Positions 289 to 37,458 of a DNA stretch of 64,000 bases are shown here, one piece after another (within the stretch, counting starts at the first letter, position 1; each line of letters begins with the position of its first letter). The notes under the pieces are model-generated. The model had not been told where the DNA came from. It saw nothing but the letters and a program-made list of their open reading frames with translations, and ran no database searches. The DNA comes from Thermodesulfobacteriota bacterium. Lineage in GTDB: Bacteria; Desulfobacterota; Binatia; Bin18. The DNA lies in contig OZ219926.1 of assembly GCA_964291405.2 (NCBI GenBank), positions 2,720,001 through 2,784,000 on the forward strand, given 5' to 3'. Position numbers and translations under genes: made by a program.

Positions 289-342
289 AAAGAGGAAACG
301 TGTCCACCAATCAGGCACAGAGGCTGGATACGTTTCCTCTTT
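289..342 (+). repeat. 54-bp palindromic element, copy 1 (prfB-PAC2 intergenic)
   Basis: AAAGAGGAAACGTGTCCA-N18-TGGATACGTTTCCTCTTT. Confidence 0.9.
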
Positions 343-388
343 CTGTCCTTGCCTGAGACCAAGGGGTAAGCGCCTCTGGGGGGAAACC

Positions 389-1306
389 ATGAACGCATTG
401 ACAATTGAACGAATTCCGGAACTGAACGACCCCGTCCTGATTGTCGCCTTTGCCGGCTGGAACGATGCCGGCAGTGCGGCGACGCATGCCACGCAATTTC
501 TTATCAAACGACTCCAGGCCCAGCGTTTCGCGACGATCGACCCTGAAGAATTTTATAATTTCAGTGAGGTCCGGCCCCACGTGCGCCTGCGAGATGGCCT
601 CTACCGCGAGATTCGCTGGCCGGCCAATGAATTCTTTGCGACTAGCGCAGAGCAGCTCAAGCGCAGCATGGTCCTGGGTCAGGGCATTGAACCGCATCTC
701 CGCTGGAAGGCGTATTCAGCGGCCTGTCTGGATGTTGCCAAGCAGTGTGGGGTGCGCCTCGTGATTACCCTGGGTGCGCTCTTGGCCGATGTGGCCTACT
801 CCAGGCCGGTACGCGTGGTCGGATTTAGCAGCGACCCCGATATTGCGACCCAACTCCAACTCACCCCGTCCCGCTACGAGGGGCCAACCGGCATCGTCGG
901 GGTGTTGAACGATGCCTGCCGACAGGCTGGATTGACGTCCATCAGTTTCTGGGCCAACGTGCCGCACTATATTTCCGCTTCTCCAAACCCAAAGGCCGCC
1001 CTGGCTCTCGTCAGCCGTCTTGAGTCCTTTCTCCACTTCGCCCTGGATACCACCGAGTTGGTGACGGGCGCGGCGGAGTTTGACGCACAGGTTGCAAAGG
1101 CGATTGCCGAGAATCCCAACTTGGCCGCCTATGTCAAACGCCTGGAAGAACAGGAGCAGGAAGAGGGGCTGGAAACGGAGACCGCTGCGCAGGACAAAGC
1201 CGGCAACGGACACGGCAACGGCAACGGGCATGCCAACGGCAAGGATATGGCTGAAGAACTCCAGCGTTTCTTGCAGCAGCGTAAGGATCGTAAAGATGAC
1301 GAGTGA
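389..1306 (+). CDS. PAC2 family (proteasome assembly chaperone-like) protein
   Basis: VLIVAFAGWNDAG, IDPEEFY, EPHLRW, YEGPTGIVGVL, WANVPHY motifs; start moved to ATG 389 because the upstream extension is the repeat. Confidence 0.85.
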   Translation: MNALTIERIPELNDPVLIVAFAGWNDAGSAATHATQFLIKRLQAQRFATIDPEEFYNFSEVRPHVRLRDGLYREIRWPANEFFATSAEQLKRSMVLGQGIEPHLRWKAYSAACLDVAKQCGVRLVITLGALLADVAYSRPVRVVGFSSDPDIATQLQLTPSRYEGPTGIVGVLNDACRQAGLTSISFWANVPHYISASPNPKAALALVSRLESFLHFALDTTELVTGAAEFDAQVAKAIAENPNLAAYVKRLEEQEQEEGLETETAAQDKAGNGHGNGNGHANGKDMAEELQRFLQQRKDRKDDE

Positions 1307-2810
1307 GGCCCGGCCCGACCCGGATAAGTCCGTGTATATGGTGAATCTGGGTTGCCCTAAAAATCTCGTGGATGGCGAGGTCATGCTCGGCCTGCTGGCG
1401 GATGCAGGCTATACGCTGAGCCTCGACCCGGAACAGGCCGGGGTCCTGATGGTCAATACGTGCAGCTTTATCGACGAGGCCAAGGAAGAGTCGATTGAGA
1501 CGATCTTGGACTTGGCGACCTATAAGACGACGAAGACAAAGAGGAAACGCGCCCTCCAATCAGACAAAAAAGCCGGACACGTTTCCTCTTTCGAGAAACA
1601 GCTCATTGTGACCGGCTGTTTAGCCCAGCGCTACGGTCAGGAGCTGCGCGAACTTCTCCCTGAAGTTGACGTTTTTGTGGGAACGGGAGAGTTTCTTCGG
1701 ATCACCGAGATATTGGAACAAAGGCGGCGCGCGCTTGAAAAGAGGGAACGTGTCCTCCAATCATCCAAAAAAGCTGGACACGTTCCCTCTTTTGGTCCTA
1801 CCATGTATCTGGGGGCCTCTCACGTCCTGCCGGATCATACCGTTCCGCGTATCCCGACTACCCATTTTTACTCCGCCTATCTCAAGGTCGCCGAAGGTTG
1901 CAACCACAAATGCGCCTTTTGTATTATTCCGAAAATTCGCGGCTTACAGGAAAGTCGGCCGATTGCTTCTCTCGTGGCCGAAGCTACCGGACTGGTCGCA
2001 CAAGGGGTGAGAGAAATTAATCTCATTGCGCAAGACCTGACCGCTTACGGGCGAGAGCGCCGTGATGGGACGACCCTGCTGGCCCTGCTCAAATCCCTCG
2101 TGCGCGTTAAGGGTCTGGACTGGATTCGGCTGCTGTACTGCTATCCGAATTATCTCGACGAAGCCCTGTTAGGTTTCATTGCCGCAGAAGAAAAAGTATG
2201 CCCGTATATTGATATGCCGCTCCAGCATATCAGCGACCGGATGTTGAGGCGGATGAAGCGGGAGAAAAGCGGGGACGGCATTCGCCGCGTGTTGGACCGG
2301 ATTCGGGCCGCTATTCCCAATGTGATTATACGCTCGTCTTTTATTGTTGGCTTTCCCGGTGAGCGAGAGGACGATTTTCAGCAGCTGTGCGATTTCGTAA
2401 CCGAGGCGGAGCTCGATCACGTAGGGGTGTTTCGCTATTCCCAGGAGGAAGGGACAGCTGCTGGTACAATGGCCGACCAGATCAGCGAAGAGATCAAAGA
2501 AGACCGCTGGCACAAATTGATGGCCTGCCAGGCCGAAGTCGTGCGTAAAAAAAATAGCGCGCTGGTGGGTGAGGAACGATCGATACTCGTCTGTGGTCAG
2601 GACGATCACGGCCGCTGGTGGGGGCGGACGCAGGGCCAGGCTCCGGATATCGATGGCATCGTCTTCCTGGAACAGTGTCCGGCTGACAGCGGCGACATGG
2701 TCCGTGCCCGGATTACCGGGGCGTCCGGTTATGACCTGCAAGCGCGCTGTCTTCCCGAGCAGCCGTTTCAAACATCCACAGCTCTTGACTTGGCAGCCGC
2801 TTCTCCCTAA
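1296..2810 (+). CDS. rimO: Ribosomal protein S12 methylthiotransferase RimO, carrying two 18-aa repeat-derived insertions
   Basis: LGCPKNLVD, VNTCSFI, VTGCLAQRY, radical SAM CNHKCAFC, C-terminal TRAM domain (APDIDG). Confidence 0.95.
   Translation: MTSEARPDPDKSVYMVNLGCPKNLVDGEVMLGLLADAGYTLSLDPEQAGVLMVNTCSFIDEAKEESIETILDLATYKTTKTKRKRALQSDKKAGHVSSFEKQLIVTGCLAQRYGQELRELLPEVDVFVGTGEFLRITEILEQRRRALEKRERVLQSSKKAGHVPSFGPTMYLGASHVLPDHTVPRIPTTHFYSAYLKVAEGCNHKCAFCIIPKIRGLQESRPIASLVAEATGLVAQGVREINLIAQDLTAYGRERRDGTTLLALLKSLVRVKGLDWIRLLYCYPNYLDEALLGFIAAEEKVCPYIDMPLQHISDRMLRRMKREKSGDGIRRVLDRIRAAIPNVIIRSSFIVGFPGEREDDFQQLCDFVTEAELDHVGVFRYSQEEGTAAGTMADQISEEIKEDRWHKLMACQAEVVRKKNSALVGEERSILVCGQDDHGRWWGRTQGQAPDIDGIVFLEQCPADSGDMVRARITGASGYDLQARCLPEQPFQTSTALDLAAASP
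1538..1591 (+). repeat. 54-bp palindromic element, copy 2, in-frame within rimO
   Basis: AAAGAGGAAACGCGCCCTCCAATCAGACAAAAAAGCCGGACACGTTTCCTCTTT; encodes KRKRALQSDKKAGHVSSF. Confidence 0.9.
1739..1792 (+). repeat. 54-bp palindromic element, copy 3, in-frame within rimO
   Basis: AAAGAGGGAACGTGTCCTCCAATCATCCAAAAAAGCTGGACACGTTCCCTCTTT; encodes KRERVLQSSKKAGHVPSF. Confidence 0.9.
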
Positions 2811-2813
2811 GGT
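2785..2813 (+). promoter_or_regulatory. Putative sigma70 promoter for dksA
   Basis: TTGACT-17bp-TAAGGT at the end of rimO. Confidence 0.5.
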
Positions 2814-2843
2814 GTCTCTCCTTTTTATCTCGACCGTGGTGAA

Positions 2844-2898
2844 AAAGAGTCAAGATGTCCTCCACGCATCCAAATAAAGCTGGACACGTTTACCCTTT
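2844..2898 (+). repeat. Palindromic element, copy 4 (degenerate, upstream of dksA)
   Basis: AAAGAGTCAAGATGTCCTCCA...AAAGCTGGACACGTTTACCCTTT. Confidence 0.85.
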
Positions 2899-2910
2899 GG
2901 AGAAGGCGTC

Positions 2911-3330
2911 ATGAGAAAAACGTTCCTCAAAAAAATGCGGACGACGCTCGCCGGCCAAAAACAGCAAATCCTGATGCAGCTTGACGAAGAGATCCGAGAG
3001 GGAAAAGAGAGTGAGCTGGACGCAGGAATGGATACCTACGATCTCGCCAGCGAGGAACGCGAACGGGAAATCCATCTGATCCTGAGTGACCGTGATCGAG
3101 ATAAACTGCAAGCCATAGAAAACGCGCTGGAGCGGATCGAAGAGGGCGAATACGGCATCTGCGAAGACTGCGAAGAAGAGATCGCCCAAGCTCGCCTCGA
3201 GGCGTTACCGTTCACCAGACTGTGTGTTGCGTGCCAAGAGGAACGCGAAAAGGAGGCGCGCTTTCAGCGCCGTATTGATGATGGGGGTGGATTCGGTCGG
3301 TCCAACTTGGTTGATCTGGACGACGGGTAA
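2911..3330 (+). CDS. dksA: DksA/TraR family C4 zinc-finger transcription factor
   Basis: DxxDxAS-like DTYDLAS; YGICEDC...RLEALPFTRLCVACQ. Confidence 0.85.
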   Translation: MRKTFLKKMRTTLAGQKQQILMQLDEEIREGKESELDAGMDTYDLASEEREREIHLILSDRDRDKLQAIENALERIEEGEYGICEDCEEEIAQARLEALPFTRLCVACQEEREKEARFQRRIDDGGGFGRSNLVDLDDG

Positions 3331-3407
3331 AATCAGCTTCGTCTTTTTCCTCGGTCCATTCTGGTTGCCTGCGCAAGGCGTCTCCTCTGTCGTCCCGCAG
3401 TGATGAG

Positions 3408-4787
3408 ATGCGACCCGACGACCGATACATTCTGCTCACTACGCTCTTTCGGACGGCCATTGAGGCGGTCCACCCGCGCCATCTGATCCCACAGACTGTT
3501 ACGATTGAAAAGGAGCAGCTGATCGTTCGGCCACGGGACGAGACCGTTGGCGCGTTGACGCTCGCTCTGACGGGTCGTCTCTTCCTGATTGGGGCAGGGA
3601 AGGGGGCAGGCAGTATGGCCCAGGCACTGATGTCCGTGCTTGGCCAGAGGGGCATTGGCGGATGTGTTATCATTCCGAGCGAGCAAGCGGTGTCCGACCT
3701 GTCTCTGCCTGGAGTACGGGTGGTGCAAGGGGAGCATCCCTTGCCTGGACCGGGCAGTGAGTACGCGGCCCAAGCGCTCATAGAGAGCCTCTCCCAGGTT
3801 CAACCTCACGACCTCGTCATGTTGTGTCTGACCGGTGGGGCCTCCAGCCTGCTCGTGCGTCCCGCAGTTGGGCTGACACTTTCGGACAAGACCATCACCA
3901 ATGCCGTCTTGTTGGAATGCGGAGCGGACATCCTGGCGCTGAACACCGTACGCAAACATATATCCGGGGTAAAAGGCGGCTGGCTCGCGCACCACGCTCA
4001 GCCGGCGACTGTGGTCAGTCTGATTCTGTCGGACGTGATTGGTGATGATATGAGTGTGATCGGCTCGGGTCCGACCGTAGCCGATCCAACGACGTTTATG
4101 GATGCCTGGCGGGTGGTGGAGCAGTACGGTATCGCCCCGCGGCTCCCCCAGTCTGTGTGCGCGCATCTGCGGCAAGGAGTCCGTGGGGCCAGACCGGAGA
4201 CGCCAAAACCCGGAGACCCGCTATTCTCTCGCGTCTATAATATACTGATTGGGTCAAATCACTTGGCCTTGCAGGCGGCCCGCGAGGCTGCCGCGCACCA
4301 AGGGCTGCGCTCTCACCTGATTTCTCAGCCCCTCGCTGGTGATACCCTCGTGGCCGGACGCGCCTTTGCCCAAGCCCTGAGAGCCGTTCGTCAACACTGC
4401 TCTGGCCCAACGTGTATTCTGGCCGGTGGCGAGACAACGGTACAGGTCAGAGGCCCTGGGAAGGGGGGGCGCAACCAGGAATTTGCGCTGGCTGTCGCCC
4501 AAGAGCTTGCCGGGGAAGCCGGGTGGAGCCTGCTGAGTGTGGGAACGGACGGCATAGATGGTCCGACCGATGCTGCCGGAGCCTTTGTGAACGGCCAGAC
4601 GCTGGACCGAGCGCGTCGAAAAAATCTCGACCCCGCTCAATTTCTGCGCAATAATGATACCTATACTTTCTTTTCTGCTCTGGGTGACTTGTTTCGCCCA
4701 GGCTCAACAGGAACAAACGTGATGGATATTAAAATTGCGCTTGTGGATCCTCCCCGCGCTGAAGAGCGCTACGGCAAAAAAGAATAG
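3408..4787 (+). CDS. Glycerate kinase type 2 (MOFRL/DUF4147 family)
   Basis: GAGKG, TGGASSL, RKHISGVKGG, LSDVIGDD, GGETTV, GGRNQE, GTDGIDG, TGTNVMD. Confidence 0.92.
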   Translation: MRPDDRYILLTTLFRTAIEAVHPRHLIPQTVTIEKEQLIVRPRDETVGALTLALTGRLFLIGAGKGAGSMAQALMSVLGQRGIGGCVIIPSEQAVSDLSLPGVRVVQGEHPLPGPGSEYAAQALIESLSQVQPHDLVMLCLTGGASSLLVRPAVGLTLSDKTITNAVLLECGADILALNTVRKHISGVKGGWLAHHAQPATVVSLILSDVIGDDMSVIGSGPTVADPTTFMDAWRVVEQYGIAPRLPQSVCAHLRQGVRGARPETPKPGDPLFSRVYNILIGSNHLALQAAREAAAHQGLRSHLISQPLAGDTLVAGRAFAQALRAVRQHCSGPTCILAGGETTVQVRGPGKGGRNQEFALAVAQELAGEAGWSLLSVGTDGIDGPTDAAGAFVNGQTLDRARRKNLDPAQFLRNNDTYTFFSALGDLFRPGSTGTNVMDIKIALVDPPRAEERYGKKE

Positions 4788-4790
4788 GAC

Positions 4791-5141
4791 ATGCCTCGTC
4801 GCCTGTTGTTACGCGGAGTGGCGGCTTTTAACGCGGGCCGTTTCCTTGACGCGCATGAAATCTGGGAGGCGCTCTGGAATGAGACGGTTGGCGAAGAGAA
4901 ACGTTTCGTCCAGGGGCTTGTGCAGTTGGCCGCCGGTTATCTCAAGCTCTCCAGTGCGCAGTATTCGGGCGCTCTCAAGCTTCTCACGCGGGCTTGCCAG
5001 ACCCTGCGGACTTATCCACCAATATATGCCGGACTCCAGATCAGCCTGCTGTCTGACGCCAGCCTCACCGTTATCCGTAAACTGGAAACGGGGAGGACAG
5101 ATACCGACATTCAGCCTCCGCAAATCCAAACCGAGCCATAA
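4791..5141 (+). CDS. DUF309 family protein
   Basis: FNAGRFLDAHEIWEALW...QGLVQLA. Confidence 0.85.
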   Translation: MPRRLLLRGVAAFNAGRFLDAHEIWEALWNETVGEEKRFVQGLVQLAAGYLKLSSAQYSGALKLLTRACQTLRTYPPIYAGLQISLLSDASLTVIRKLETGRTDTDIQPPQIQTEP

Positions 5142-5162
5142 GAAATCCCCGCTTTTCCTATT

Positions 5163-5209
5163 CTGAATGGACATTCAGTCAGTTTTTCTTGACAAAACCC
5201 AGGTGTCAA
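5163..5209. promoter_or_regulatory. Two palindromic operator-like sites upstream of thrB
   Basis: CTGAATG-GA-CATTCAG (5163-5178) and TTGACA-N9-TGTCAA (5189-5209), the latter containing a perfect -35 hexamer. Confidence 0.5.
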
Positions 5210-5282
5210 TAGTATGACTGTATATCCGGACAGTACGAGGATGGAGTGGAAAAGATTGAGGTCCATGTCCGAAGAAGTCTGC

Positions 5283-6320
5283 ATGGCTGTCTACACTGTC
5301 CTTGACCGCAAAGCCGTTAATCGTCTCGTCAAAGACTATGGATTAGGGCGTTTGTCAACCGCTCAGGGTATCTCTGCCGGATCGGTGAACACTCATTATT
5401 GCCTTGAGGCTGCGAAGGGAAAATTCGTTCTGCGAATTGATGAGGTCAAAGACACGAGCGACGCGCAGCGTGAAATCGACTTTCTGCTCTTCTTGCGTAA
5501 ACGTGGCTTTCCGTGCCCACGGCCGGTGGCCGACAAAAACGGTTCCTATCTCCAGGAATACGAAAAGAAGGCGGTCTCTATCTATCGTCATCTGGCCGGC
5601 AAAGACTTCTCGGCCGCAACGCTCACCAATGACCACATAGAAAAGATTGGACAGACCCTGGCCCGGCTCCATCTCATTGGCCAGGAATATGATACCCCGA
5701 TCAGAAACCGGTTTGCTTTTGACCGTGTACGCAGTATTTATCAAAACCTGCGCGGCCGTATTGCGGTCCATCTGAAGCATATCGGCCACGTCCTGGATGA
5801 TGAAATCGCCCATCAGGAAGAATATCGGGAAGAAAAGCTGCCAAAAGGCATGATCCACGGCGACCTCTTTCCTGATAACGTCCTGTTTCGTGGTGGGAGA
5901 GTCGTTGGTGTGCTCGACTTTGAAGCGGCCTGTTTTGGCAAATTCATTGCCGACCTGGCAACTGCCGTAAACGCCATGTGCTATTACGAGGAGCGCTACC
6001 ATATTGGTCGATTCAACGCCCTCCTTGACGGTTATCAGTCCGAGCGTACGCTTTCGCTAGCCGAGTGGGACGCCTTTCCGAATGAGCTCCGTTTTTCCGC
6101 CTTCCGCTTTACTCTGACTCGTCTGCGTGATTTTTTCTTTCGCCACATGGATGAAAAACGACGGGTGAATAAGGATTATCGGGAATTCTTTCACCGTCTC
6201 AGAATCCTCCGCCGGGAGCGGAGCGGTGGGATGGACCAAATGCTCCTCACGATGGCAACGGGCTATGATTACCGCAAGTATCAAAAGATCCACGCTGAGG
6301 AAAAAGGCGTGAACGCCTAA
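5283..6320 (+). CDS. thrB: Homoserine kinase type II (Pseudomonas-type, APH fold)
   Basis: MAVYT start, GISAGSVNTHY, IHGDLFPDNVLF, LDFE, FTLTRL. Confidence 0.85.
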   Translation: MAVYTVLDRKAVNRLVKDYGLGRLSTAQGISAGSVNTHYCLEAAKGKFVLRIDEVKDTSDAQREIDFLLFLRKRGFPCPRPVADKNGSYLQEYEKKAVSIYRHLAGKDFSAATLTNDHIEKIGQTLARLHLIGQEYDTPIRNRFAFDRVRSIYQNLRGRIAVHLKHIGHVLDDEIAHQEEYREEKLPKGMIHGDLFPDNVLFRGGRVVGVLDFEAACFGKFIADLATAVNAMCYYEERYHIGRFNALLDGYQSERTLSLAEWDAFPNELRFSAFRFTLTRLRDFFFRHMDEKRRVNKDYREFFHRLRILRRERSGGMDQMLLTMATGYDYRKYQKIHAEEKGVNA

Positions 6321-6370
6321 GTCCGGTACCCCCTGCGCCCTGACAACATTGCGGAGACATCCAGACCACT

Positions 6371-7867: not shown

Positions 7868-7885
7868 TACCCGAATTATTCCGAA

Positions 7886-8407: not shown

Positions 8408-8427
8408 ACAGCCCAGTGGAGGTGCCC

Positions 8428-9342
8428 TCAGCCGAGCTGGGAACCCACCTGAAGCCCAATATGCCCAGCGAGCTCGTCAGCGGCGATTTTGCCCCGCTCA
8501 CCGCGGAGCTTTTTGGCGACGACGGTGCCACCGTTCAGGGCAATGCTGACAGTCCCATCCCCAAGGGCGAGCACTTGTCCCGGTGTTGCTGATCCGCTAG
8601 ACGGCTCCAGGCGACAGTCATACAGGCGGATTTTCTGTCCGCGCCATAGTGTCGATGCGCCGGGCTGTGGGTCGCACCCGCGGATATGGTCAAAGACGGC
8701 TTGCGCTGGCTGAGACCAGTCAATGCCAGAATGTTCATCCCGACACAACGGATCGTAATTGGCCTGGGATTCGTCTTGGACAATGCGCGGCGGACTACCG
8801 GCTTGAATCAGATCGATCGCCTCACCAGCGGCCTCAATACCGAGCGGGAAGAGTTTGTTGAAGTACAGGGTTCCGGTTGTCTCTTCTGGGCCAATTTCGA
8901 CTTCTTTTTGCACCAGTATCGGACCGGTATCAATACCCTCGTCTACCCAGAACCAGGAGATACCGGTCTTTTTCTCACCATTGATCAGGGTCCAGTTAAT
9001 CGCACTCCCACCACGATACTTGGGTAAGAGTGACGGGTGAAAACAGATGCTACCGAGTTTGGGCGCGTTGAACACTGGAGGCGGAACGATTTGGGTCACG
9101 AAGGCCAATACGGCGAGATCCGCGTCGAGCTCTTGAAATTTCCCCAAGACCTCAGGACTCTTCATGGAGCGGTGTTGATAAACGGGAATATCGAGTTCCC
9201 CTGCCCGCTTCTTGACAGGATCAAACTTTCCTTCGACTCTGTCCGGGGGGCAAAACACCGCCAGGATATCCTGGCCCTTATCCCGGAGCTTATCGAGCGT
9301 TTTTTCCGCAAACGCGGCTTGACCAATGAGAATGATACGCAT
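8428..9342 (-). CDS. Formyltransferase/10-formyl-THF hydrolase-like protein (Fmt superfamily)
   Basis: IGQAAF, HPSLLPKYRGGSAINW, DEGIDTG, IRGCDPQPGA. Confidence 0.85.
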   Translation of the reverse strand: MRIILIGQAAFAEKTLDKLRDKGQDILAVFCPPDRVEGKFDPVKKRAGELDIPVYQHRSMKSPEVLGKFQELDADLAVLAFVTQIVPPPVFNAPKLGSICFHPSLLPKYRGGSAINWTLINGEKKTGISWFWVDEGIDTGPILVQKEVEIGPEETTGTLYFNKLFPLGIEAAGEAIDLIQAGSPPRIVQDESQANYDPLCRDEHSGIDWSQPAQAVFDHIRGCDPQPGASTLWRGQKIRLYDCRLEPSSGSATPGQVLALGDGTVSIALNGGTVVAKKLRGERGKIAADELAGHIGLQVGSQLG

Positions 9343-9384
9343 ATGGGTTCTCCTTTCCGTACGTCCGTTCGACAGTCTGTTGGC

Positions 9385-9440
9385 AAAGAGTAAACGTGTC
9401 CAGCTTTTTTTTGTCTGGCTGGAGGATACGTTTACTCTTT
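9385..9440 (-). repeat. Palindromic element, copy 5
   Basis: Reverse complement AAAGAGTAAACGTATCCTCCAGCCAGACAAAAAAAAGCTGGACACGTTTACTCTTT. Confidence 0.9.
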
Positions 9441-9449
9441 GGGGTGTTT

Positions 9450-10184
9450 TCAGCGGGGCAGCAATACGTCCTTCAGCACGTGGCTGAGCTTTTGACCCAC
9501 TGCAACGATACTCGTCCTGTCCAGCAATAAGCCATTATTGATTTCGATTTCGAGATAGACGAGATTATGACGCTCGCCATGACTCCGGGCGCTAAAGATA
9601 AGCCCATCATAACCGGAGTAGGGCTCGTTATAGCGCACCCGGTAGCCGGTATGGCTCAGCCGTTGCTCGAACTCCTGGGCAAGGTCTTCGTAGCGGTCGA
9701 ATAAGATGCCTAAATCAAACGATCTTTTCTTCTCACCGAGGATCGGGGTGAAGCTGTGAACGCTGAGCAGAAAAACAGGCGGTGGCATTTTTTGCGTCAG
9801 CACACGGTCAATAGCTGCATGATAGGGCTGGTAGAACTGCATAATGCGTTGCTGTTGCTCGGCCTCGGTCAGATGCATATTAGCCGGAACGCGCGTGCCG
9901 TCGCTCTCAGGAATAATGAGGTCATCGTCTGACAGGGCACGGTTGCAGTCAATCAAGAGGCGCGAGTATTGAGATAGAATAGCTGTGGAATCAACATGTT
10001 GGATGATCTCTTGAACAACCGCCCGAGCACCAATATCCCAGCCGATATGGCGCCGTAACTCGTCAGGAGGAATCCCGAGCGTCCCGTATTCAGGCGGGAG
10101 CGCGGATGACGCGTGTTCACAGGTGAGCACCATTGGAAAGGTGCCGTTCGGGTTGAGAATCGTAAAGGAAGACGCTGCGCTCAC
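9450..10184 (-). CDS. N-formylglutamate amidohydrolase family protein
   Basis: TCEHAS, HIGWDIGA, SRLLIDCNR, YQPYH, SVHSFTP, NEPYSG, EIEI. Confidence 0.9.
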   Translation of the reverse strand: MSAASSFTILNPNGTFPMVLTCEHASSALPPEYGTLGIPPDELRRHIGWDIGARAVVQEIIQHVDSTAILSQYSRLLIDCNRALSDDDLIIPESDGTRVPANMHLTEAEQQQRIMQFYQPYHAAIDRVLTQKMPPPVFLLSVHSFTPILGEKKRSFDLGILFDRYEDLAQEFEQRLSHTGYRVRYNEPYSGYDGLIFSARSHGERHNLVYLEIEINNGLLLDRTSIVAVGQKLSHVLKDVLLPR

Positions 10185-27906: not shown

Positions 27907-27930
27907 AGAAAAGACACAAAGGAAGAGGCG

Positions 27931-29187
27931 ATGAGTCTTGAAAATATGGTGGTCACATTAGCCCAAACCGCAAAAAAAGCCGCCCGAATATTGGCTACCG
28001 TATCAACACACACGAAGAATCAGGCGCTTCTCGCCGCTGCTCAGCAACTCCGGGAGCAGACGGAAGTCTTGCTGACTGCCAATGCCCAGGACGTTGCCCG
28101 AGGAAAAGACAAGGGCTTATCTGCCGCGTTGCTCGATCGGCTGACGCTGAACCAAACGCGCATACACGCCATGGCCACAGGGCTCGAAATTATGGTCGAT
28201 CTGCCGGACCCGGTCGAGGAAACAGTCGCCACCTGGAAGCGACCAAATGGCCTGGAAATCAGCCAAATCCGCGTCCCGCTCGGCGTTGTCGGGATTATTT
28301 ACGAGTCGCGGCCGAATGTCACGGCCGATGCCGCCGGCCTGTGCCTCAAGGCTGGCAATGCGGTTGTGCTGAAAGGGGGATCGGAGGCGTTTGCGACCAA
28401 CAGTGCCATTGTTGATGTGCTGACCCAGGCCTTTGCCGAAGCGGGCTTGCCGGACGGGGCGGTTCAACTGGTTCGCTCGACCGATCGACAGGCCGTCTCC
28501 TTTCTCCTCCAGCAAGATCGCTATATTGATGTCATTATTCCGCGCGGCGGAGAGGAGTTGATCCGCGCCGTCACGCGCGCCTCCGCCATCCCGGTGATTC
28601 AGCATTTCTCCGGCATATGTCACACCTATGTCGATGCCGCGGCTGATATTGAAAAGGCACACCAAGTTTGCCTGAATGCCAAGGCACAAAGGCCGTGGGT
28701 GTGCAATGCTATGGAGAACCTGCTGGTACATGAAGCCGTTGCCCACCGTTTCCTCCCAGACTTCGTTGCGCGACTCGAACAAGAGAGTGTCGAGGTTCGC
28801 GGCTGTGACCAGACGCGCCAGATCGTCCCTCAGGTGGGCGTCGCGACTGAGACGGATTGGCAAACCGAATATCTTGATAAAATTCTCTCAGTCAAAGTGG
28901 TGCGCTCGCTTGATGAGGCGCTGGATTTTATTCATACCAACGGGTCAGGACTAGCCGATTGCATCGTGAGCGAAGATTACTCACACGTCCGGCGGTTTCT
29001 GCGTGAGGTCGACTCTGCGACGGTCTATGCAAACGCTTCAACGCGCTTCACCGATGGCTTTGAGTTCGGATTCGGGGCTGAGGTCGGCATTTCGACGAAC
29101 CGACTCCACGCCAGGGGGCCCATGGGCCTGCGTGAGCTGACAACCTATAAATATGTGGTCTACGGAGATGGCCAGATACGAGCATAA
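27931..29187 (+). CDS. proA: Gamma-glutamyl phosphate reductase
   Basis: YESRPNVT, LKGGSEA, IPRGG, CNAME, NASTRFTDG, HARGPMG. Confidence 0.97.
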   Translation: MSLENMVVTLAQTAKKAARILATVSTHTKNQALLAAAQQLREQTEVLLTANAQDVARGKDKGLSAALLDRLTLNQTRIHAMATGLEIMVDLPDPVEETVATWKRPNGLEISQIRVPLGVVGIIYESRPNVTADAAGLCLKAGNAVVLKGGSEAFATNSAIVDVLTQAFAEAGLPDGAVQLVRSTDRQAVSFLLQQDRYIDVIIPRGGEELIRAVTRASAIPVIQHFSGICHTYVDAAADIEKAHQVCLNAKAQRPWVCNAMENLLVHEAVAHRFLPDFVARLEQESVEVRGCDQTRQIVPQVGVATETDWQTEYLDKILSVKVVRSLDEALDFIHTNGSGLADCIVSEDYSHVRRFLREVDSATVYANASTRFTDGFEFGFGAEVGISTNRLHARGPMGLRELTTYKYVVYGDGQIRA

Positions 29188-29196
29188 CAGACGAAA

Positions 29197-29248
29197 AAGA
29201 GTCACCGAGCCAACCGCTTTATATAAGTTAGAGGGCCCGTTGACTCTT
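29197..29248 (-). repeat. Palindromic element, highly degenerate copy (proA-nadD intergenic)
   Basis: Reverse complement AAGAGTCAACGGGCCCTCTAACTTATATAAAGCGGTTGGCTCGGTGACTCTT keeps terminal stem and CCTCyAA/AAAGC loop motifs. Confidence 0.6.
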
Positions 29249-29262
29249 CCAGATTCTCACGT

Positions 29263-29931
29263 ATGAAAGTCGGGCTGTTCGGCGGAACGTTTAACCCCAT
29301 CCATTTGGGTCATTTACGCAGTGCGGAAGAAGTCTGCGCAGCGTTTACGCTTGACCGCATATACTTCATTCCTTCTGCTTCTCCTCCGCACAAGCGCCCA
29401 ACGGATATCGCCCCTGCCCACCATCGCTACAATATGGTGGAGCGGGCAGTTGCTGCCAACCCGGCCTTCTTTGCCTCTCGTATCGAACTCGACCGCGCCG
29501 GCCCCTCGTTTTCGATTGATACGATACGCGCCTTTCGGACAAGGGAAACATCGGCCTCTCTCGCCTTTCTTATCGGGATGGATGCGTTCTGTGAGATAGA
29601 GACCTGGAAGGACTATCTGGAGATTCCCAGCTTATGCGATCTGATTGTCACCTCGCGTCCCGGGGTTCCCACTCCACCACTTGATCAACTCCTTCCCGTT
29701 GCTCTTCGGCCCGCCTTTTGGTATGATTCGATCCAGCAGAGATACCAGCACGAATCAGGGCATACATTGACGCTCTATACACTGAACGGTCTCCATATTT
29801 CGGCCTCCAGCATCCGTGACAACCTTCGCGTTGGTCGGCCCACACTCTGCCAGCTCCCGCCCGCCGTGGCGGACTATATCGCGACGCACGCCCTCTATGG
29901 CACCCAAGAGGCTCTTTCCTTTGAAAGCTGA
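29263..29931 (+). CDS. nadD: Nicotinate-nucleotide adenylyltransferase
   Basis: GGTFNPIHLGH, PPHK, IGMDAF, ISASSIR. Confidence 0.95.
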   Translation: MKVGLFGGTFNPIHLGHLRSAEEVCAAFTLDRIYFIPSASPPHKRPTDIAPAHHRYNMVERAVAANPAFFASRIELDRAGPSFSIDTIRAFRTRETSASLAFLIGMDAFCEIETWKDYLEIPSLCDLIVTSRPGVPTPPLDQLLPVALRPAFWYDSIQQRYQHESGHTLTLYTLNGLHISASSIRDNLRVGRPTLCQLPPAVADYIATHALYGTQEALSFES

Positions 29932-30316: not shown

Positions 30317-30421
30317 CGGCCTTCTTCTGGCACCGAGAAAATTCCCCTTCTCTTTCTTTCCACACGCCTTTCCCCTTATACTAGTAGCCGGAACCAGCGA
30401 GAGAACCTCGTGGGGGATGCT

Positions 30422-30823
30422 ATGGGGCGAACGGCTTCTGCGCAAGAGATTCTATATTACGGCAGTACCCCTAAACACCAGTATTGGGAGAACGAAAAAC
30501 AGACGCTGCGTCTCGTCCGCGACCGGTCTGCATCGGTCTGGCGAGCGTATCACAAGCAAAGCGGCCGGTATCGCCCTTTACTCGTGAAGTCTCGCTCCTC
30601 GGCAGGACTCCGAAGAGGAAAACGGAAATCGACACCGCTGACGGGCAGAAGCGCTGAAGAAGTCGTGGCTAATATCAAGCGTGACTATCAGCTGCGGCTG
30701 GTGCTTGAGCAACGACTGCGCCGCTGGATGGACAAGTCGTCAGGAAAGCGTGTGCTGGCCTTTCTCGACCCCAACCAGGGAGGTGCGCCGGCGATGACGG
30801 ATCCAGGCACGTATAATGCCTGA
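30422..30823 (+). CDS. Hypothetical basic protein
   Basis: ORF filling the gap between rsfS and convergent fabH; GGGGA upstream; no recognised motif. Confidence 0.5.
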   Translation: MGRTASAQEILYYGSTPKHQYWENEKQTLRLVRDRSASVWRAYHKQSGRYRPLLVKSRSSAGLRRGKRKSTPLTGRSAEEVVANIKRDYQLRLVLEQRLRRWMDKSSGKRVLAFLDPNQGGAPAMTDPGTYNA

Positions 30824-30900
30824 TAAGATCAGTTCCCCTTCTCTCGCAACAGGAAAGTCTTGAAAAGTCGATTGCTTAATCAACCCGCGGCGGCGCGATC

Positions 30901-31875: not shown

Positions 31876-31998
31876 GCGCTACCTCTTTAATCCTTCTTGC
31901 CCAGCGAGATCAGGCCAATCAATACGTCTCATACTGTTTCGCTCAAGGCAGGTTCTGATTGCTTCGGTCCCAGTGTTCTCGTTATACCGGCCGCCGTT

Positions 31999-33276
31999 CT
32001 ACTGATTCGTGCTCTGCCCGTTCTGATCGTTATCCCATTTGCGAAAGACGAGACAGGCGTTGGTCCCTCCAAAGCCGAAGGAATTGGATAAGACGGCCCG
32101 GACAGGTGTCGAGCGGGACTTATTGGGCACATAGTCTAAGTCGCACTCTGGATCAGGTTCCTCATAGTTAATGGTTGGCGGTATGATCTGATGATGGAGC
32201 GCCAAAGCGGAATAGACGGCTTCGACGCCACCGGCAGCCCCAAGTAAATGGCCGGTCATGGACTTGGTCGAACTGATCGCGAGCTTTGTGGCGTGTTCTC
32301 CAAAGACTCTCTTCAGGGCCAAGGTTTCGGTCGCGTCGTTATACGGTGTTGAGGTCCCGTGTGCATTGACGTAATCGATCTCGGTTGGATCAAGTCCGCT
32401 GCTCCGGAGGGCCATCCGCATGCACCGGACTGCGCCCTCACCTTCGGGCGAGGGCGCGGTGATATGATGCGCGTCCCCATTGGCACCGTAGCCGATCACT
32501 TCAGCGTAGATGGTTGCCCCATGACTCTTTGCGAATTCGAGCTCCTCCAACACAACGATACCGGCGCCTTCGGCCATGACAAAGCCGTCACGATTCTTGT
32601 CAAACGGACGGCTGGCTCCCTCAGGTGCGTCGTTCCGCGTCGAGACTGCCCGCATGGCAATAAAGCCGCCGAGCCCTAACGGGGTCAGCGCCGCCTCTGC
32701 TCCCCCGGCAATAACGGCGTCTTGGTCGCCCAGTCGAATGGCCCGGTACGCTTCACCAATGGCATGCGCACCAGAAGAGCAGGCACTCGTTGGCGTATAA
32801 TTAATACCTTTGGCGCCATAGCGAATAGAGATTTGGCCGGGTGCCAGGTTGCTCAACAGCTTGGGGATAAAGAAGGGAGAAACGCGCTTGAGCCGGGTAT
32901 CGAGAAAGAGCAGATGATTCTCTTCAATACTGGTGAGCCCACCAATCCCCACCCCGATAATACACCCCACCAGATCCTCATTGTCCGGCGTGATTGGGAC
33001 CTTAGCCTCATCCATTGCCATCTGGGCCGCGGCCACACTGTACTGGATGAAGAGGTCCATCTTTTTGACCTCTTTTTTCTCGATAAAATCGGTGGGTGTG
33101 AAGTCGGTGACCTCGCCAGCGATCCGCGTGGGAAAGTCTGAAACATCAAAGCGGGTTAACGGTCCTACCCCAGAGCGTCCCTCAAGCAGTGCTTGCCAGT
33201 TTTTCTCCACTCCAGTGCCCAGTGGAGTGACCGCCCCTAGCCCAGTAATGACGACACGACGTTGCCCGTCTTGCAT
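31999..33276 (-). CDS. fabF: 3-oxoacyl-ACP synthase II
   Basis: [43 protein letters not shown]. Confidence 0.96.
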
Positions 33277-33301
33277 AATATCCTGCCTTACAAACTACTG
33301 A

Positions 33302-33355
33302 AAAGAGTAAGCGTGTCCTCCACTAGACATGAGAGGCTGGACACGTTTACTCTTT
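33302..33355 (+). repeat. 54-bp palindromic element, copy upstream of fabF
   Basis: AAAGAGTAAGCGTGTCCTCCACTAGACATGAGAGGCTGGACACGTTTACTCTTT. Confidence 0.9.
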
Positions 33356-33604
33356 TGCCAACATCCCACCGTCCCAAAGGTGGGCTCAATAGTTTTTTAC
33401 CCGCGCCTCTCCGTTCCCCCAGAAACTTTATTCAGGCTGTGTATCTTAAAGCCTCCGAGAATCCCCTGCAACCAGTTAGCTATGCTCCTCGCGAACCCGA
33501 ATCGAGTGGACGAGCACCAAAGGGAGTCCCTTTTCTGACAGTGGGCTGCTATACGGAATACTCCAAAAGGCAGTACCGTAATCATGAGGAGTTGACAGAG
33601 GCGT

Positions 33605-34855
33605 ATGCCAGAACAGGAGCAGGGTCGACACATTCAAACAGTGTACCTGGACCAACGTGCCTACGCCTTCCCGCATCGGCCTGTGGTCGTGATCTGTATA
33701 GACGGGTGTGATCCAGCCTATATCAAGACTGGCCTGGCCCGGAACATTCTGCCCAACATCCAGCGTTTTCTCACCAAAGGGTTTGGCACCTGGGCGGACG
33801 CGGTCGTCCCAACGTTTACGAATCCGAACAATCTATCCATTGTCACGGGCAGTCCGCCCGCTGTGCACGGGATTTCAGGGAATTATTTTCTCGATCCGAC
33901 AACCGGACAGACAGTCATGATGACCGATCCCCACCAGCTCCGTTCAGAAACCCTGCTGGCGCGCTTCTCCCACAGCGGGGTCAAAGTCATCGTCATTACC
34001 GCCAAAGAGAAACTGCGCCGTTTGCTTGGCTACGGAATCGCCGACGGTATATGTTTCTCTGCCGAAAAGGCGGAAGACTGTACCATCCCCGTGCACGGTA
34101 TTGAGAACGTTTGCCAGCGGATTGGCCGTCCACAGCCCGATGTCTACTCTGCCGAGCTGTCACTCTTTGTCCTAGAAGCTGGCCTCGCCCTGCTCGAACA
34201 GTACCGACCGGGGTTGATGTATCTCTCGCTGAGCGACTATGTCCAGCATAAACATGCACCGGGGAGCGCGGAAGCGAACGCGTTCTATGCCGCGCTTGAC
34301 CTTGTGTGTGGTCGGCTGGCTGAAGCGGGAGCCATGGTCGCTCTCACCGCCGACCATGGCATGAATGCCAAACCACGAGTCGTGTTTCTCCAGGATATTC
34401 TGAATACGAGCTGTGGTCAGGGCAAGACACGCGTAATCTGTCCGATTACTGATCCCTATGTGGTCCATCATGGGGCGTTGGGGTCTTGTGTCCGCGTCTA
34501 CTGTCTTGATACGGACCGGGCTGCCGTGCAGGCTATCATCGCAGACATTCCTGGGGTTGAAGCGGTTTATGATAGGTTCGCCGCGTGCGAGCGGTTTCTC
34601 CTGCCGCCCGACCGCGAGGCCGACCTCCTTGTGCTTGGCGACCAACACACGGCCATTGGGGCGGCCGAACGAGATCATGACTTGTCCGAGTTAGGCGATG
34701 CACCGCTCCGCTCTCATGGAGGGCGCGCGGAGCAGGTGGTCCCATTTATCCTTTCCGAGCCAGTTTCCGAGGCGTACCATACCCGCGCGGCAACCATCCG
34801 GCTTAGCACCTTCGACCTGTTCGACTACGCTTTGAATGGGACATGTGAGTTGTAG
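33605..34855 (+). CDS. phnA: Phosphonoacetate hydrolase
   Basis: VVICIDG, PTFTNPNNLSIVTG, HGISGN, DYVQHK, TADHGM, HHGALG, LRSHGG. Confidence 0.9.
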   Translation: MPEQEQGRHIQTVYLDQRAYAFPHRPVVVICIDGCDPAYIKTGLARNILPNIQRFLTKGFGTWADAVVPTFTNPNNLSIVTGSPPAVHGISGNYFLDPTTGQTVMMTDPHQLRSETLLARFSHSGVKVIVITAKEKLRRLLGYGIADGICFSAEKAEDCTIPVHGIENVCQRIGRPQPDVYSAELSLFVLEAGLALLEQYRPGLMYLSLSDYVQHKHAPGSAEANAFYAALDLVCGRLAEAGAMVALTADHGMNAKPRVVFLQDILNTSCGQGKTRVICPITDPYVVHHGALGSCVRVYCLDTDRAAVQAIIADIPGVEAVYDRFAACERFLLPPDREADLLVLGDQHTAIGAAERDHDLSELGDAPLRSHGGRAEQVVPFILSEPVSEAYHTRAATIRLSTFDLFDYALNGTCEL

Positions 34856-34921
34856 CCTTCTGCGCTTTTCTCGTTTCCTCACGCCTTGTGTCGGGAAAAT
34901 GGAGTCTATAGACTGAAAATA

Positions 34922-35554
34922 ATGGATGTCTCAGGCGTGGTGCAGCAACTGTCCATTTGGGTACTGCCGGTCCTTGTGGCGGTCATCTTGCACGAGCTCG
35001 CGCATGGCTATAGCGCCTATCTGCTGGGTGATCCGACCGCTGCCCGAATGGGTCGCCTGACCCTGAATCCAATTGCCCATATCGATCTGCTTGGAACCCT
35101 CTTATTACCCTTCCTGCTGATCATGACTGGCGCGCCGTTTCTGTTTGGCTACGCCAAGCCCGTTCCCGTAGACTTTACGAATCTGCGCAACCCCCGACGA
35201 GATATGGTCCGTGTGGCCGCGGCTGGTCCGATCATGAACCTGATATTAGCCGGACTGTCCGCCTTTGCGCTGAAGTTCCTGCTGTCCCTCCAACTCATCA
35301 CCGATGGACTGGTCGCCCGCAACCTGTTGAATAGCGTCCTGATCAATGTTGTACTCGCCGTCTTTAATTTGTTTCCGCTCCCGCCGCTCGACGGCGGGCG
35401 GGTCGCCACCGGACTGCTGCCTCGGCAGCCGGCTCTGGTGCTCGCCAGGCTTGAGCCCTATGGCATGTTGATCGTGATATTCCTGTTGATGACCGGGATT
35501 CTTGGCGACATACTTCAACCGCCGGTGCTCTTTGTCCTCAACACTCTCTTGTGA
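34922..35554 (+). CDS. Site-2 protease family (M50) membrane metalloprotease
   Basis: HELAH, GDPTA..GRLTLNP, AGPIMN, FNLFPLPPLDGG. Confidence 0.92.
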   Translation: MDVSGVVQQLSIWVLPVLVAVILHELAHGYSAYLLGDPTAARMGRLTLNPIAHIDLLGTLLLPFLLIMTGAPFLFGYAKPVPVDFTNLRNPRRDMVRVAAAGPIMNLILAGLSAFALKFLLSLQLITDGLVARNLLNSVLINVVLAVFNLFPLPPLDGGRVATGLLPRQPALVLARLEPYGMLIVIFLLMTGILGDILQPPVLFVLNTLL

Positions 35555-35564
35555 GATTTTCTGC

Positions 35565-36590
35565 ATGACCGACACCACACCGATGCGGCAAACGATTGTG
35601 AGTGGATTTCGTCCAACCGGTAAGCTTCATCTTGGACATTTACACGGTACGCTGACCAACTGGGTCCGGCTCCAGAGCGAGTACCGGTGTTTTTTCTTTG
35701 TGGCCGACTGGCACGCCCTGACCACCGGGAAGACGGACGCCGAGAGCATTCGGAGCAATACCGAAGAGATGGTAATTGACTGGCTAAGCGTTGGGCTCGA
35801 CCCCAACCAGTCTGTGATTTTCCGTCAGTCTGATGTGAAGGAGCATGCCGAGCTGCACCTCTTGTTTTCGATGATTACGCCGACGCCGTGGCTGATTCGG
35901 AACCCTACCGTCAAAGAGCAAGCGCGTGAACTGGGCTTTATTGACTCTGATGATGAGGCTGCGGTGACCACGATTCACTACGGGTTGCTCGGCTATCCTG
36001 TCCTCCAGGCCGCCGACATCCTGATGTATAAGGCGCAGCGGGTTCCGGTCGGGGTCGATCAAGTGCCGCATATCGAGTTGACCCGCGAGATTGCCCGGCG
36101 CTTTAATGCCGTCTACGAGACCAGGGTCTTTCCCGAGCCCCAGGCTCTGCTTACGGAGATTCCAAAGATTCTTGGCGTTGACGGCCGCAAAATGAGCAAG
36201 AGCTATGGCAACGCGGTCGTCCTCTCAGACCCGCCGCAGGAGGTCGATACGAAACTGTCGCGGATGATGACCGACCCACGCCGAGCGCGCCGACGTGACC
36301 CTGGCGACCCGGCCGACTGCCCGGCTTTTCACCTGCACCGCCTCTACTGTACGCCGGAAGAAATCGAATTTGTCACAAGCGGGTGTAAAACCGCGGATAT
36401 CGGCTGTCTTGAATGCAAGAAGATTATGATCAAGCATGTGCTTGACGATTTGGCACAATTCAGGGAAAAACGAACGTACTGGGAAAACCACCGCGACGAT
36501 GTGCGCGACGTCCTCCGGGAAGGGGAGCGTCAGGCTCACGAAATCGCCCGTCAAACCATGGCGGAGGTGCGGGAGGTTGTTGGTGTGTAA
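35565..36590 (+). CDS. trpS: Tryptophanyl-tRNA synthetase
   Basis: RPTGKLHLGH, YPVLQAADI, VPVGVDQ, KMSKS. Confidence 0.96.
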   Translation: MTDTTPMRQTIVSGFRPTGKLHLGHLHGTLTNWVRLQSEYRCFFFVADWHALTTGKTDAESIRSNTEEMVIDWLSVGLDPNQSVIFRQSDVKEHAELHLLFSMITPTPWLIRNPTVKEQARELGFIDSDDEAAVTTIHYGLLGYPVLQAADILMYKAQRVPVGVDQVPHIELTREIARRFNAVYETRVFPEPQALLTEIPKILGVDGRKMSKSYGNAVVLSDPPQEVDTKLSRMMTDPRRARRRDPGDPADCPAFHLHRLYCTPEEIEFVTSGCKTADIGCLECKKIMIKHVLDDLAQFREKRTYWENHRDDVRDVLREGERQAHEIARQTMAEVREVVGV

Positions 36591-36700
36591 GGTGACGGAA
36601 GGGTCAGGCCACCAGAGTTGGTGAGACGGTGTCGGCCCTCCCTTTTGCCACATGGGAAATGACGAACGGCGAAGAGTGTCCAGCCGACAAAGCCCTTTCC

Positions 36701-37438
36701 ATGTTTTATCGCGTTAAGCTCAACGTCTTTGAGGGACCGCTCGACTTATTGCTCCATCTCGTCAAGAAGAACGAGGTGGAGTTGCCCGATATCCCTGTTG
36801 CTGAAATTACCGATCAGTATTTAGCCTACCTCGACCTTCTCAAACAGCTCGATCTTGACATCGCAGGAGAATACCTGGTGATGGCGGCGAGCCTGCTCTA
36901 CCTCAAATCGCGTCTCCTGCTGCCTCTTGAGGAAACCCCCGAAGAAGAGGAGGGTGAAGACCCGCGCGCGGAGTTGGCTCGACAACTGCTCGAATACCAA
37001 CGCTTCAAAGAAGCAGCCGAGACGCTGATAGGTCGGGAGATGCTCAACCGCGACGTGTTTATTCGCCCACCCATGCCCGTCGAGCCGGATGGTAAAGACG
37101 ATGTCGTGTATGACTTGTCGCTGGGCGATCTGCTCGATGCTCTGCAGGATGTGATGACACGCGCAGACTCTCAAGAGGCGCATCAGATCATGCTTGAGCA
37201 TGTGTCTTTGCGGGATCGACTGCGTGCGGTGCTTGATACCTTACGGGAAAAAGGAGAGGTGTTCTTCGAGCAGCTTTTTCCCCAGAATTCAACCCGCCTG
37301 CAGGTCCTGGTGACCTTCCTGGCCGTTCTCGAACTGGCCCGCAATAGGATGATCCAGGTGCGCCAAGAGAATCCCTTTGGCCCGATCGTTGCCTCCCTGG
37401 CGGTAAGAGGAAACGTGTCCTCCAATGATGTCGTATAA
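36701..37438 (+). CDS. scpA: Segregation and condensation protein A
   Basis: FEGPLDLLL, LKSRLLLP, LLEYQRFK, VTFLAVLEL; start could be 36659. Confidence 0.93.
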   Translation: MFYRVKLNVFEGPLDLLLHLVKKNEVELPDIPVAEITDQYLAYLDLLKQLDLDIAGEYLVMAASLLYLKSRLLLPLEETPEEEEGEDPRAELARQLLEYQRFKEAAETLIGREMLNRDVFIRPPMPVEPDGKDDVVYDLSLGDLLDALQDVMTRADSQEAHQIMLEHVSLRDRLRAVLDTLREKGEVFFEQLFPQNSTRLQVLVTFLAVLELARNRMIQVRQENPFGPIVASLAVRGNVSSNDVV

Positions 37439-37458
37439 AGCTGGACACGTTTCCTCTT
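37405..37458 (+). repeat. Palindromic element copy overlapping the scpA 3' end and stop codon
   Basis: AAGAGGAAACGTGTCCTCCAATGATGTCGTATAAAGCTGGACACGTTTCCTCTT. Confidence 0.9.

Follow-up and report, generated by a model that had tools for sequence, protein, structure and literature searches.

A 54-bp palindromic hairpin in a Binatia-labelled genome is mobile DNA that inserts bluntly, without target duplication

How does one short palindrome come to lie at eight places in a 64,000-nucleotide stretch of a bacterial chromosome, between genes, across the end of a gene and twice inside a gene? The stretch in question (hereafter the window) comprises positions 2,720,001 to 2,784,000 of the forward strand of contig OZ219926.1 of a Thermodesulfobacteriota bacterium, assembly GCA_964291405.2, and sits on the 4.9-Mb contig (C3) of a three-contig genome. 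[quoted passage not shown] Comparison of orthologous sites between genomes of the same genus demonstrated that this hairpin is mobile DNA and that it inserts bluntly, without duplication of its target.

Each unit has a loop of about 20 nt closed by a 17-bp stem, in which AAAGAGKAAACGTGTCC pairs with its complement. Sixty-nine genomic copies served to build a covariance model, which was run without filters over all 64 kb of the window. Matches were obtained at exactly eight loci, on the strands reported in the earlier note, with seven at 51.1 to 78.2 bits and a degenerate eighth at 34.9 bits (range of expectation [E] values, 3e-16 to 6e-6). The next-best match in this unfiltered run had an E value of 2.1, and none was found beyond 38 kb, in agreement with the earlier note. 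A search with the inner 10-mer, allowing at most 1 mismatch, gave 13 matches in the window against 3.98 +/- 1.91 in 100 shuffled sequences, none of which reached 13. The eight copies (54 to 56 bp) and the gene that hosts two of them are as follows; model coordinates carry 3 nt of flank per side, and ORF denotes an open reading frame.

Copy 1: 289..342, plus strand, 54 bp (model 286-345, 66.2 bits); flanked by co-directional genes, with the ATG at 390 lying 47 nt downstream
Copy 2: 1538..1591, plus strand, 54 bp (model 1535-1594, 62.4 bits); in frame in RimO, residues 79-96 of the translation, in the UPF0004 domain
Copy 3: 1739..1792, plus strand, 54 bp (model 1736-1795, 78.2 bits); in frame in RimO, residues 146-163, in the linker before the radical-SAM domain
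Copy 4: 2844..2898, plus strand, 55 bp (model 2841-2901, 51.1 bits); between cistrons, with 33 nt separating it from the preceding RimO stop codon and 12 nt from the ATG that follows
Copy 5: 9385..9440, minus strand, 56 bp (model 9382-9443, 64.5 bits); between minus-strand ORFs 9450-10184 and 8428-9342
Copy 6: 29196..29249, minus strand, degenerate (model 29193-29252, 34.9 bits, E value 6.4e-6); between plus-strand ORFs 27931-29187 and 29263-29931
Copy 7: 33302..33355, plus strand, 54 bp (model 33299-33358, 71.6 bits); divergent intergenic region between ORF 31999-33276 (minus) and ORF 33605-34855 (plus)
Copy 8: 37404..37459, plus strand, 56 bp (model 37401-37462, 67.1 bits); ORF 36629-37438 runs 35 nt into the element, overlapping it with its 3' end
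RimO-type methylthiotransferase gene: 1305..2810, plus strand, UPF0004, Radical_SAM and TRAM_2 domains, start codon approximate; hosts copies 2 and 3

Nine places were compared across the same-genus genomes, and eight of these occurred in both filled and empty states. The 54 bp alone distinguished an empty allele from the filled one at every one of the eight polymorphic sites. In the earlier note, a lack of empty sites in relatives had been named as the observation that would argue against mobility; exact filled/empty boundaries were found at all eight insertion sites. A search of the genome for a 17-nt arm (at most 4 substitutions) paired with its reverse complement within 40 to 80 bp recovered 144 copies, all on the 4.9-Mb main contig. 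Target-site duplication was detected neither in the flanks of these 144 copies, where direct repeats of at least 2 nt occurred at chance levels (2-nt repeats in 7 of 144 versus 9.15 expected), nor at the eight filled/empty sites, and the original observation of their absence from the window holds.

The site of the copy at 289 was filled in 6 of 12 genomes, exactly empty in 2 (G004 and G010) and occupied by other sequence in 4. In the latter genomes (G005, G011, G013 and G018), an unrelated sequence of ~60 nt with its own inverted repeat was present, which may be another palindromic element using the same site. Of the same 12 genomes, 5 carry the copy at 1538; in 4 the site is exactly empty, in 2 it reads AAATTT and in 1 it has three unrelated nucleotides. 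The copy at 1739 is carried by 9 of them, the most divergent one among these; it is half-deleted in 1, and the site is exactly empty in 2. The copy at 2844 was present in 12 of 12 genomes. Elsewhere on the chromosome, copies in the genes for MnmG, MnmE and a Cu-oxidase_4 protein were filled in G000 and G004 only and were lacking in G002, G005 and G011; G013 was cleanly empty at the Cu-oxidase_4 site only and had unrelated sequence at the MnmG and MnmE sites. At the MnmE site, 6 nt replaced the element in G005, G011 and G013. The element at C3:3348268 directly adjoins, on one side, the last sense codon of a gene and, on the other, its stop codon; of the 19 genomes aligned at this site, 4 are filled and 14 empty. 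At the intergenic site C3:2492856, G004 and G002 exhibited a larger deletion of 65 nt that removed the element together with its flanks.

Some empty alleles appear to be due to loss. A tree of the RimO locus, computed from 4,037 flank columns, placed G011 as sister to G005 with a support of 1.0; the site of the copy at 1739 is empty in the former and filled in the latter. As G002 also lacks this copy and G013, the most divergent genome, has it, the tree implies exact loss on at least two occasions there. Several of the 6-nt alleles were remnants equal to the outer 3+3 nt of the element: AAATTT at the first RimO site in G001 and G010, and, at the MnmE site, GAATTT in G011 and GAATGT in G005. 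A collapsed copy that had kept only the outer stem was found at C3:2812970. Symmetric, hairpin-shaped deletions of this type would be expected to arise by structure-directed deletion, with selection inside genes passing only the in-frame outcomes. In resident copies, the loop could also be inverted where it stood. G000 and G004 carry at C3:3348268 a loop that is, with 1 mismatch, the reverse complement of the one in G005 and G011, and at the window site 2844 the loop was inverted in G005 and G006 (2 of 12 genomes). These inversions carry weight because loops are otherwise nearly unique to each copy, genome-wide.

The proposal that pairing of the arms is maintained was examined in the genomic copies and in orthologous copies. 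Compensated double changes in the stem numbered 39 versus 3.0 expected for independent arms (13-fold) when two subfamily-defining positions were left out. Among the 69 copies of the model alignment, 95.1% of cells paired and 10 of the 17 pairs changed on both sides; the covariation score of 0.175 (0.109 in shuffles) was reached by 0 of 500 shuffles and exceeded all slid controls. Even the degenerate copy 6 had arms that still paired via matching changes (GAGTCA with TGACTC). Compensation extended to orthologous copies, in which two Watson-Crick pair types were present at 9 stem pairs and 55 pairs varied on one side only, although these counts include noise (the extraction for the window site 289 comprised 3 rows, one of them wrong). 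One double stem change, inside RimO in G006, was unique to that lineage. Both the covariation of the arms and the maintenance of pairing, as previously put forward, were thus borne out by these analyses.

Genome-wide, the element was defined by its structure. The lengths of the 144 copies ranged from 51 to 57 bp, with 54 bp, equivalent to 18 codons, being the modal length (79 of 144) followed by 55 bp (35 of 144); the estimate of about 54 bp is hence correct as a mode, while several copies in the window are 1 or 2 bp longer. A profile search with nhmmer recovered all 144 copies and a further 15 degenerate or partial loci. End logos of the 144 copies gave AAAGAG and CTCTTT, with both ends paired, no sequence conserved outside the stem and no GTAG tetranucleotide, the lack of which had been remarked on from the window. 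As single-stranded DNA, five of the window copies were predicted to fold into one long hairpin at -9.8 to -19.6 kcal/mol (z scores of -2.8 to -8.4). Rfam, at gathering thresholds, returned only a tRNA and a clustered regularly interspaced short palindromic repeat (CRISPR) array over the whole window, so that no described Rfam family accounts for the repeat; when the copies were searched at E values of up to 10, only sub-threshold hairpin look-alikes were obtained, among which Plastid-psbJ-5 scored highest (26.1 bits; cut-off, 53.1).

A weak, two-fold symmetric bias was detected 4 to 6 bp either side of the insertion point. Position -6 was A in only 3 and position +6 was T in only 2 of the 144 copies, while position -5 was G in 84 and position +5 was C in 75. 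No fixed tetra- or pentanucleotide target and no conserved flank word was present in the 144 copies. An extension of the stem into the flanks was rejected, as flanks paired no more than shuffled flanks. Since the flanks are unpaired and the same flank bases are found in empty alleles, this bias is a target preference and not a part of the element.

The relation of the element to genes was determined with calls from a crude codon-bias caller (4,472 genes, 88% of the contig). Sixty-six of the 144 copies were intergenic, 38 overlapped the 3' end of a gene, 15 lay deep within a gene and ~31 were near a called start. Intact hosts were confirmed by Pfam for 13 of the 15 deep copies, and one host ORF had no Pfam match; the Pfam scan left out two of the deep-copy hosts. 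The hosts of in-frame copies, as identified by Pfam, were the following, and a PDDEXK-domain protein is probably a further one.

In-frame hosts, first group: AlaRS (insert at residues 272-290, inside the catalytic domain), MnmG, MnmE, Cu-oxidase_4, APH and a histidine kinase
In-frame hosts, second group: an OEP protein (two copies), a UvrA-like protein, a HEAT-repeat protein, an FAD monooxygenase and RimO (two copies)

The in-gene copies use two frames, encoding either K-[RS]-K-R-V-L-Q...A-G-H-V-[SY]-S-F or R-G-N-V-S-S-N...L-D-T-F-P-L. The two inserts in RimO, of 18 residues each, were absent from RimO in 11 of 11 more distant genomes. In an AlphaFold model of this protein with a mean predicted local distance difference test (pLDDT) score of 85.6, the inserts were the only internal stretches of low confidence (pLDDT below 50 at residues 79-94 and a mean of 59 over residues 151-160).

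Gene ends interact with the element in a particular manner. In 24 of 144 copies, the upstream gene stopped at a TAA of the element itself (positions 7-9), with the addition of two residues. In a further 10 copies, the stop codon of the gene shared 1 to 2 nt with the element, and only four genes read further in. This stopping frame is favoured, as random frames would give one in three. The commoner T variant of the element has a TAA in frame 1 on both strands, while the G variant lacks it, and G variants were enriched inside genes (9 of 15 versus 46 of 139 overall; Fisher P = 0.04). The in-frame copies, the exact boundaries, the provision of stop codons and the remnants all add to what had been read from the window alone, as do the loop inversions and the results on transposase linkage and origin clustering described below.

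The proposed restriction of the element to one lineage was supported by searches of other genomes. The element was present in 21 of 28 genomes of the genus, most of which had at least 150 copies, with four having 2, 24, 27 and 75. It was absent from 7 of 28, including two single- or two-contig genomes scored as 100% complete. Among 141 genomes sampled from the class, those with the element all belonged to this family: the sister genus gave weak matches in 2 of 3 genomes, and 0 of 124 genomes from 18 other families contained it. A pattern scan of 185,579 species genomes yielded matches of which 80 loci were listed, and 69 of these were in metagenome-assembled genomes (MAGs) labelled 'Candidatus Binatia bacterium'. 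Of the 11 non-Binatia loci among the matches listed, 8 were scored and reached at most 29.9 bits, versus 51 to 83 for real copies; these and three viral stretches sharing the inner motif (at most 16.5 bits) were dismissed as unrelated palindromes caught by the search pattern. Another short palindrome with the same inner 10-nt stem word was present in three copies at 3427-4016 of a Danxiaibacter flavus contig (24 to 30 bits) and probably represents an unrelated repeat family. A literature search on palindromes of Binatota or Binatia found only unrelated papers.

Copies were concentrated around the putative origin of replication. With dnaA at 2.46 Mb, 26 of 144 copies were located within 100 kb of this gene (4% of the contig) and 75 of 144 within 500 kb (20% of the contig; P = 4e-17), and the 250-kb bin from 2.25 to 2.50 Mb, which contains dnaA, had 36 of 144. 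Matches in the low-copy relatives G013 and G038 were also clustered within ~1 Mb, a region that in G013 included MnmE and MnmG. No mirror-image strand bias with respect to replication was observed (44 plus and 19 minus on the right replichore, 41 plus and 39 minus on the left), but this test is weak because loops flip in place.

These results make it probable that the element is a non-autonomous 54-bp mobile hairpin, defined by structure, that enters bluntly, does little harm, is lost by hairpin deletion and has its arms kept complementary. Entry into DNA would be as a blunt unit of exactly 54 bp, with no duplication. Persistence would follow from low harm: a copy of 18 codons that is open in most frames would, when inside a gene, just add a hydrophilic loop of 18 residues, and a copy at a gene end would, through the frame 1 TAA of the T variant, terminate the gene after two extra residues. 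Loss would occur by deletion of the hairpin, either exactly or leaving the outer 3+3 nt, while in resident copies the complementarity of the arms and the inversion of loops would be brought about by template switching or arm conversion at replication. A single-strand or replication-linked mechanism is suggested overall, and the element appears to be largely inactive now.

Several observations weigh against this interpretation. No identical dispersed copies were present among the 144, and hence the family is not young in this genome and there is no sign of recent movement in it; the median nearest-neighbour distance was ~5 to 6 of 54 nt. The sole identical pair was a local tandem duplicate. The searches for an associated transposase and for a parent element (see below) identified no mobilising enzyme. 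The exact losses within genes could be a selection-filtered subset of a wider range of deletions rather than the products of a dedicated excision, and, as the flank tree represents one 4-kb locus, recombination between genomes could mimic repeated loss and loop inversion. A part of the compensation in the stems stems from subfamilies copied off sources that were already compensated, such as C3:831004 and C3:3280091. The gene calls are crude, and ~31 copies near called starts lack a confident classification. Finally, a bias in orientation and an excess in tandem intergenic regions, both set out below, fit a host-level function or selection better than a purely selfish spread.

The latter two observations count in favour of the alternative that the hairpin serves the host in a REP-like manner between cistrons, where as RNA or DNA it would stabilise mRNA 3' ends, be processed or bind a protein, and is kept by selection with its spread being secondary. 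Among non-genic copies, 86 of 121 lay between co-directional genes, which make up 57% of intergenic length; in addition to the 38 copies that abut or overlap gene 3' ends, copies were co-oriented with the overlapping gene in 37 cases and opposed in 16 (P = 0.005), some stem changes were compensated within orthologous copies, and the copy at 2844 was retained by all 12 genomes. We nevertheless regard such a role as distinctly unlikely to be the primary explanation, since two different frames are used by the 15 copies within coding sequence, close relatives differ through free gain and loss of sites, with a quarter of the genus genomes (7 of 28) lacking the element, and orthologous stem pairs vary mostly on one side (55 versus 9 with two Watson-Crick types). 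Selection on the RNA of the sense strand was not supported, as mismatches of the G.T type (27) were no more frequent than those of the A.C type (32); when mismatches were sorted by loop orientation, a mild excess was detected (109 versus 74; P = 0.012). Intrinsic termination was rejected: none of the five copies between positions 1 and 12000 of the window was flagged as a whole, because the loop is 20 nt and there is no T tail.

Two further alternatives involve known transposases. Movement as single-stranded DNA by an IS200/IS605-type Y1 transposase, of the REP-associated tyrosine transposase (RAYT) kind, would agree with a hairpin-defined unit whose structure rather than sequence is conserved, with the lack of target duplication and with exact losses, and a Y1_Tnp gene does exist in the genome. 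This gene (C3:980603-983833), the only one of its type, consists, however, of two ORFs parted by an inverted-repeat segment that has been inserted, and its flanks hold not the 54-bp element but a third repeat, built on GCGGGCTTCCAGCCCGC; it looks like a decayed REPtron for a different family. Within the genus, 9 of the 21 genomes with the element and 4 of the 7 without it had Y1_Tnp genes. With the split gene flanked by another repeat and Y1_Tnp not tracking the element, a RAYT was rejected as the mobiliser, and the lack of a GTAG or CGTC end tag and of a target tetranucleotide, together with the occurrence of single hairpins instead of inverted doublets, makes this route very unlikely. It is scarcely credible that a DDE-type insertion sequence sharing its terminal inverted repeats gave rise to the 54-bp element as a classical MITE. 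Its high copy number, its lack of coding capacity and its 17-bp terminal inverted repeats speak for such an origin, but target-site duplications are missing from the flanks and from the eight filled/empty sites, and the arm sequence is not fixed, its changes being compensated. Moreover, no arm pair separated by 80 to 8,000 bp in this genome encloses a gene that could belong to a parent element; the sole candidate, of 1.1 kb, was discarded as a degenerate arm plus part of a short copy, and the genes between close copies are housekeeping genes, for example dnaX-ybaB-recR, trmD-rplS and ureA. The attribution of movement, in the earlier note, to a factor yet to be named is in keeping with this lack of RAYT linkage and of a long parent element.

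For the mobile hairpin itself, blunt insertion, the hairpin structure, the symmetric target bias and the pile-up at the origin together suggest that a folded single strand is inserted at replication forks or close to them. A more specific version, which is tentative and on balance unlikely, is that this is a new type of blunt-inserting element, in which a folded single strand moves at the fork, handled either by replication and repair proteins of the host or by some structure-specific enzyme that is not a RAYT, with the arms being re-templated in each round and with both insertion and excision being seamless. Such a process would explain the lack of duplication, the exact losses, the compensated stems, the loop flips and the origin pile-up and, if true, would be the first tractable mechanism for 'protein-coding palindromes' of the Rickettsia type. 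Template-switch correction of quasi-palindromes at replication is a mutational process and not a family of mobile elements; it would explain the homogenisation of arms and the inversion of loops while leaving dispersal unexplained.

Among described systems, the functionally closest are the RPEs, followed by the CGTC-type REPs and then the Coxiella QMITEs, and the assignment to a REP-, MITE- or RPE-like kind was to this extent supported. According to PMC10969869 (citing Ogata et al. 2000, 2002), RPEs are roughly 100 to 150 bp long and, in some families, nearly half are intragenic. Like the present element, they are described there as dispersed palindromes, often in frame in unrelated housekeeping genes with a tolerated peptide product, with no known dedicated transposase and with each being restricted to one lineage. 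The present element differs in its length of 54 bp and its intragenic proportion of ~10%, a comparison made with the description of RPEs only; in its host, which is a free-living, uncultured, Binatia-labelled organism with 5-Mb genomes, whereas that of RPEs is obligately intracellular; and in having orthologous empty sites that give exact ends and no duplication. It is therefore regarded as a small palindromic mobile element that works like an RPE, and membership in the RPE family is not claimed.

REPs, as described in PMC3733652, have stems of 5 to 13 bp with an unpaired GTAG or CGTC tag and occur predominantly as head-to-head dimers. Both they and the present element are short palindromes found mostly downstream of coding regions or between co-directional genes and occasionally within genes, and CGTC REPs are likewise reported there without a dedicated transposase. 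In contrast to REPs and REPINs, the present element has a 17-bp stem and a 20-nt loop, without a tag or an association with a RAYT, and its copies are single, with only three pairs within ~110 bp. The Coxiella elements QMITE1 and QMITE2, as portrayed in PMC5896051, resemble it in being non-coding, in overlapping gene ends, where they supply stop codons or C-terminal residues, and in being sometimes in frame; they are 150 to 400 bp long with terminal direct repeats, whereas the 54-bp element has none. Palindrome-associated elements of the IS200/IS605 type share the lack of duplication and the seamless excision, yet 6-nt remnants are also present here and there is no fixed target word.

To our knowledge, in-frame palindromic DNA in essential genes is known mainly from Rickettsia, and we know of no established mechanism for it. 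The same behaviour has now been observed in a free-living uncultured lineage for which several same-genus assemblies are single contigs, and in which filled, empty and remnant orthologous alleles fix the ends of the element to the base. Entry without duplication, exit and upkeep of the stem have thereby become testable, as has the question of whether the self-terminating design of 18 codons is an adaptation for harmlessness. There is also a consequence for the annotation of MAGs, as RimO, AlaRS, MnmG and MnmE carry lineage-specific inserts of 18 residues and about one-sixth of the copies provide the stop codon of an upstream gene.

A second repeat family was encountered in the flanks of some copies. 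It is ~45 bp long and consists of two short GC-rich hairpins ending in GGGGTGGGTT (for example at C3:44727, 1149033 and 3304399). Fifty-four clean copies without the 54-bp insert were detected, often as REPIN-like inverted doublets, none of them in the window. Approximately 10 copies, a figure obtained by reading of flanks, were interrupted by the element, always at a single junction; both orientations and several types of loop were represented there. Two explanations offer themselves: a hot spot for insertion at this junction, or spread of the composite copies themselves.

The identical pair of copies mentioned above is located at C3:2091886-2092040, where the two lie 101 bp apart upstream of, or within an N-terminal extension of, a Mur ligase gene and result from a local tandem duplication that took in the element. 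Within the window, a tRNA gene at 38855-38928 is situated just past the last hairpin copy (37404-37459), and no copies occur beyond it; the region on its far side may be a later-acquired island, which would fit with an old burst of the element. This stretch without hairpin copies includes the CRISPR array, at 52333-53861, which has 26 identical 28-nt repeats with a 60-nt period and matches Rfam CRISPR-DR4.

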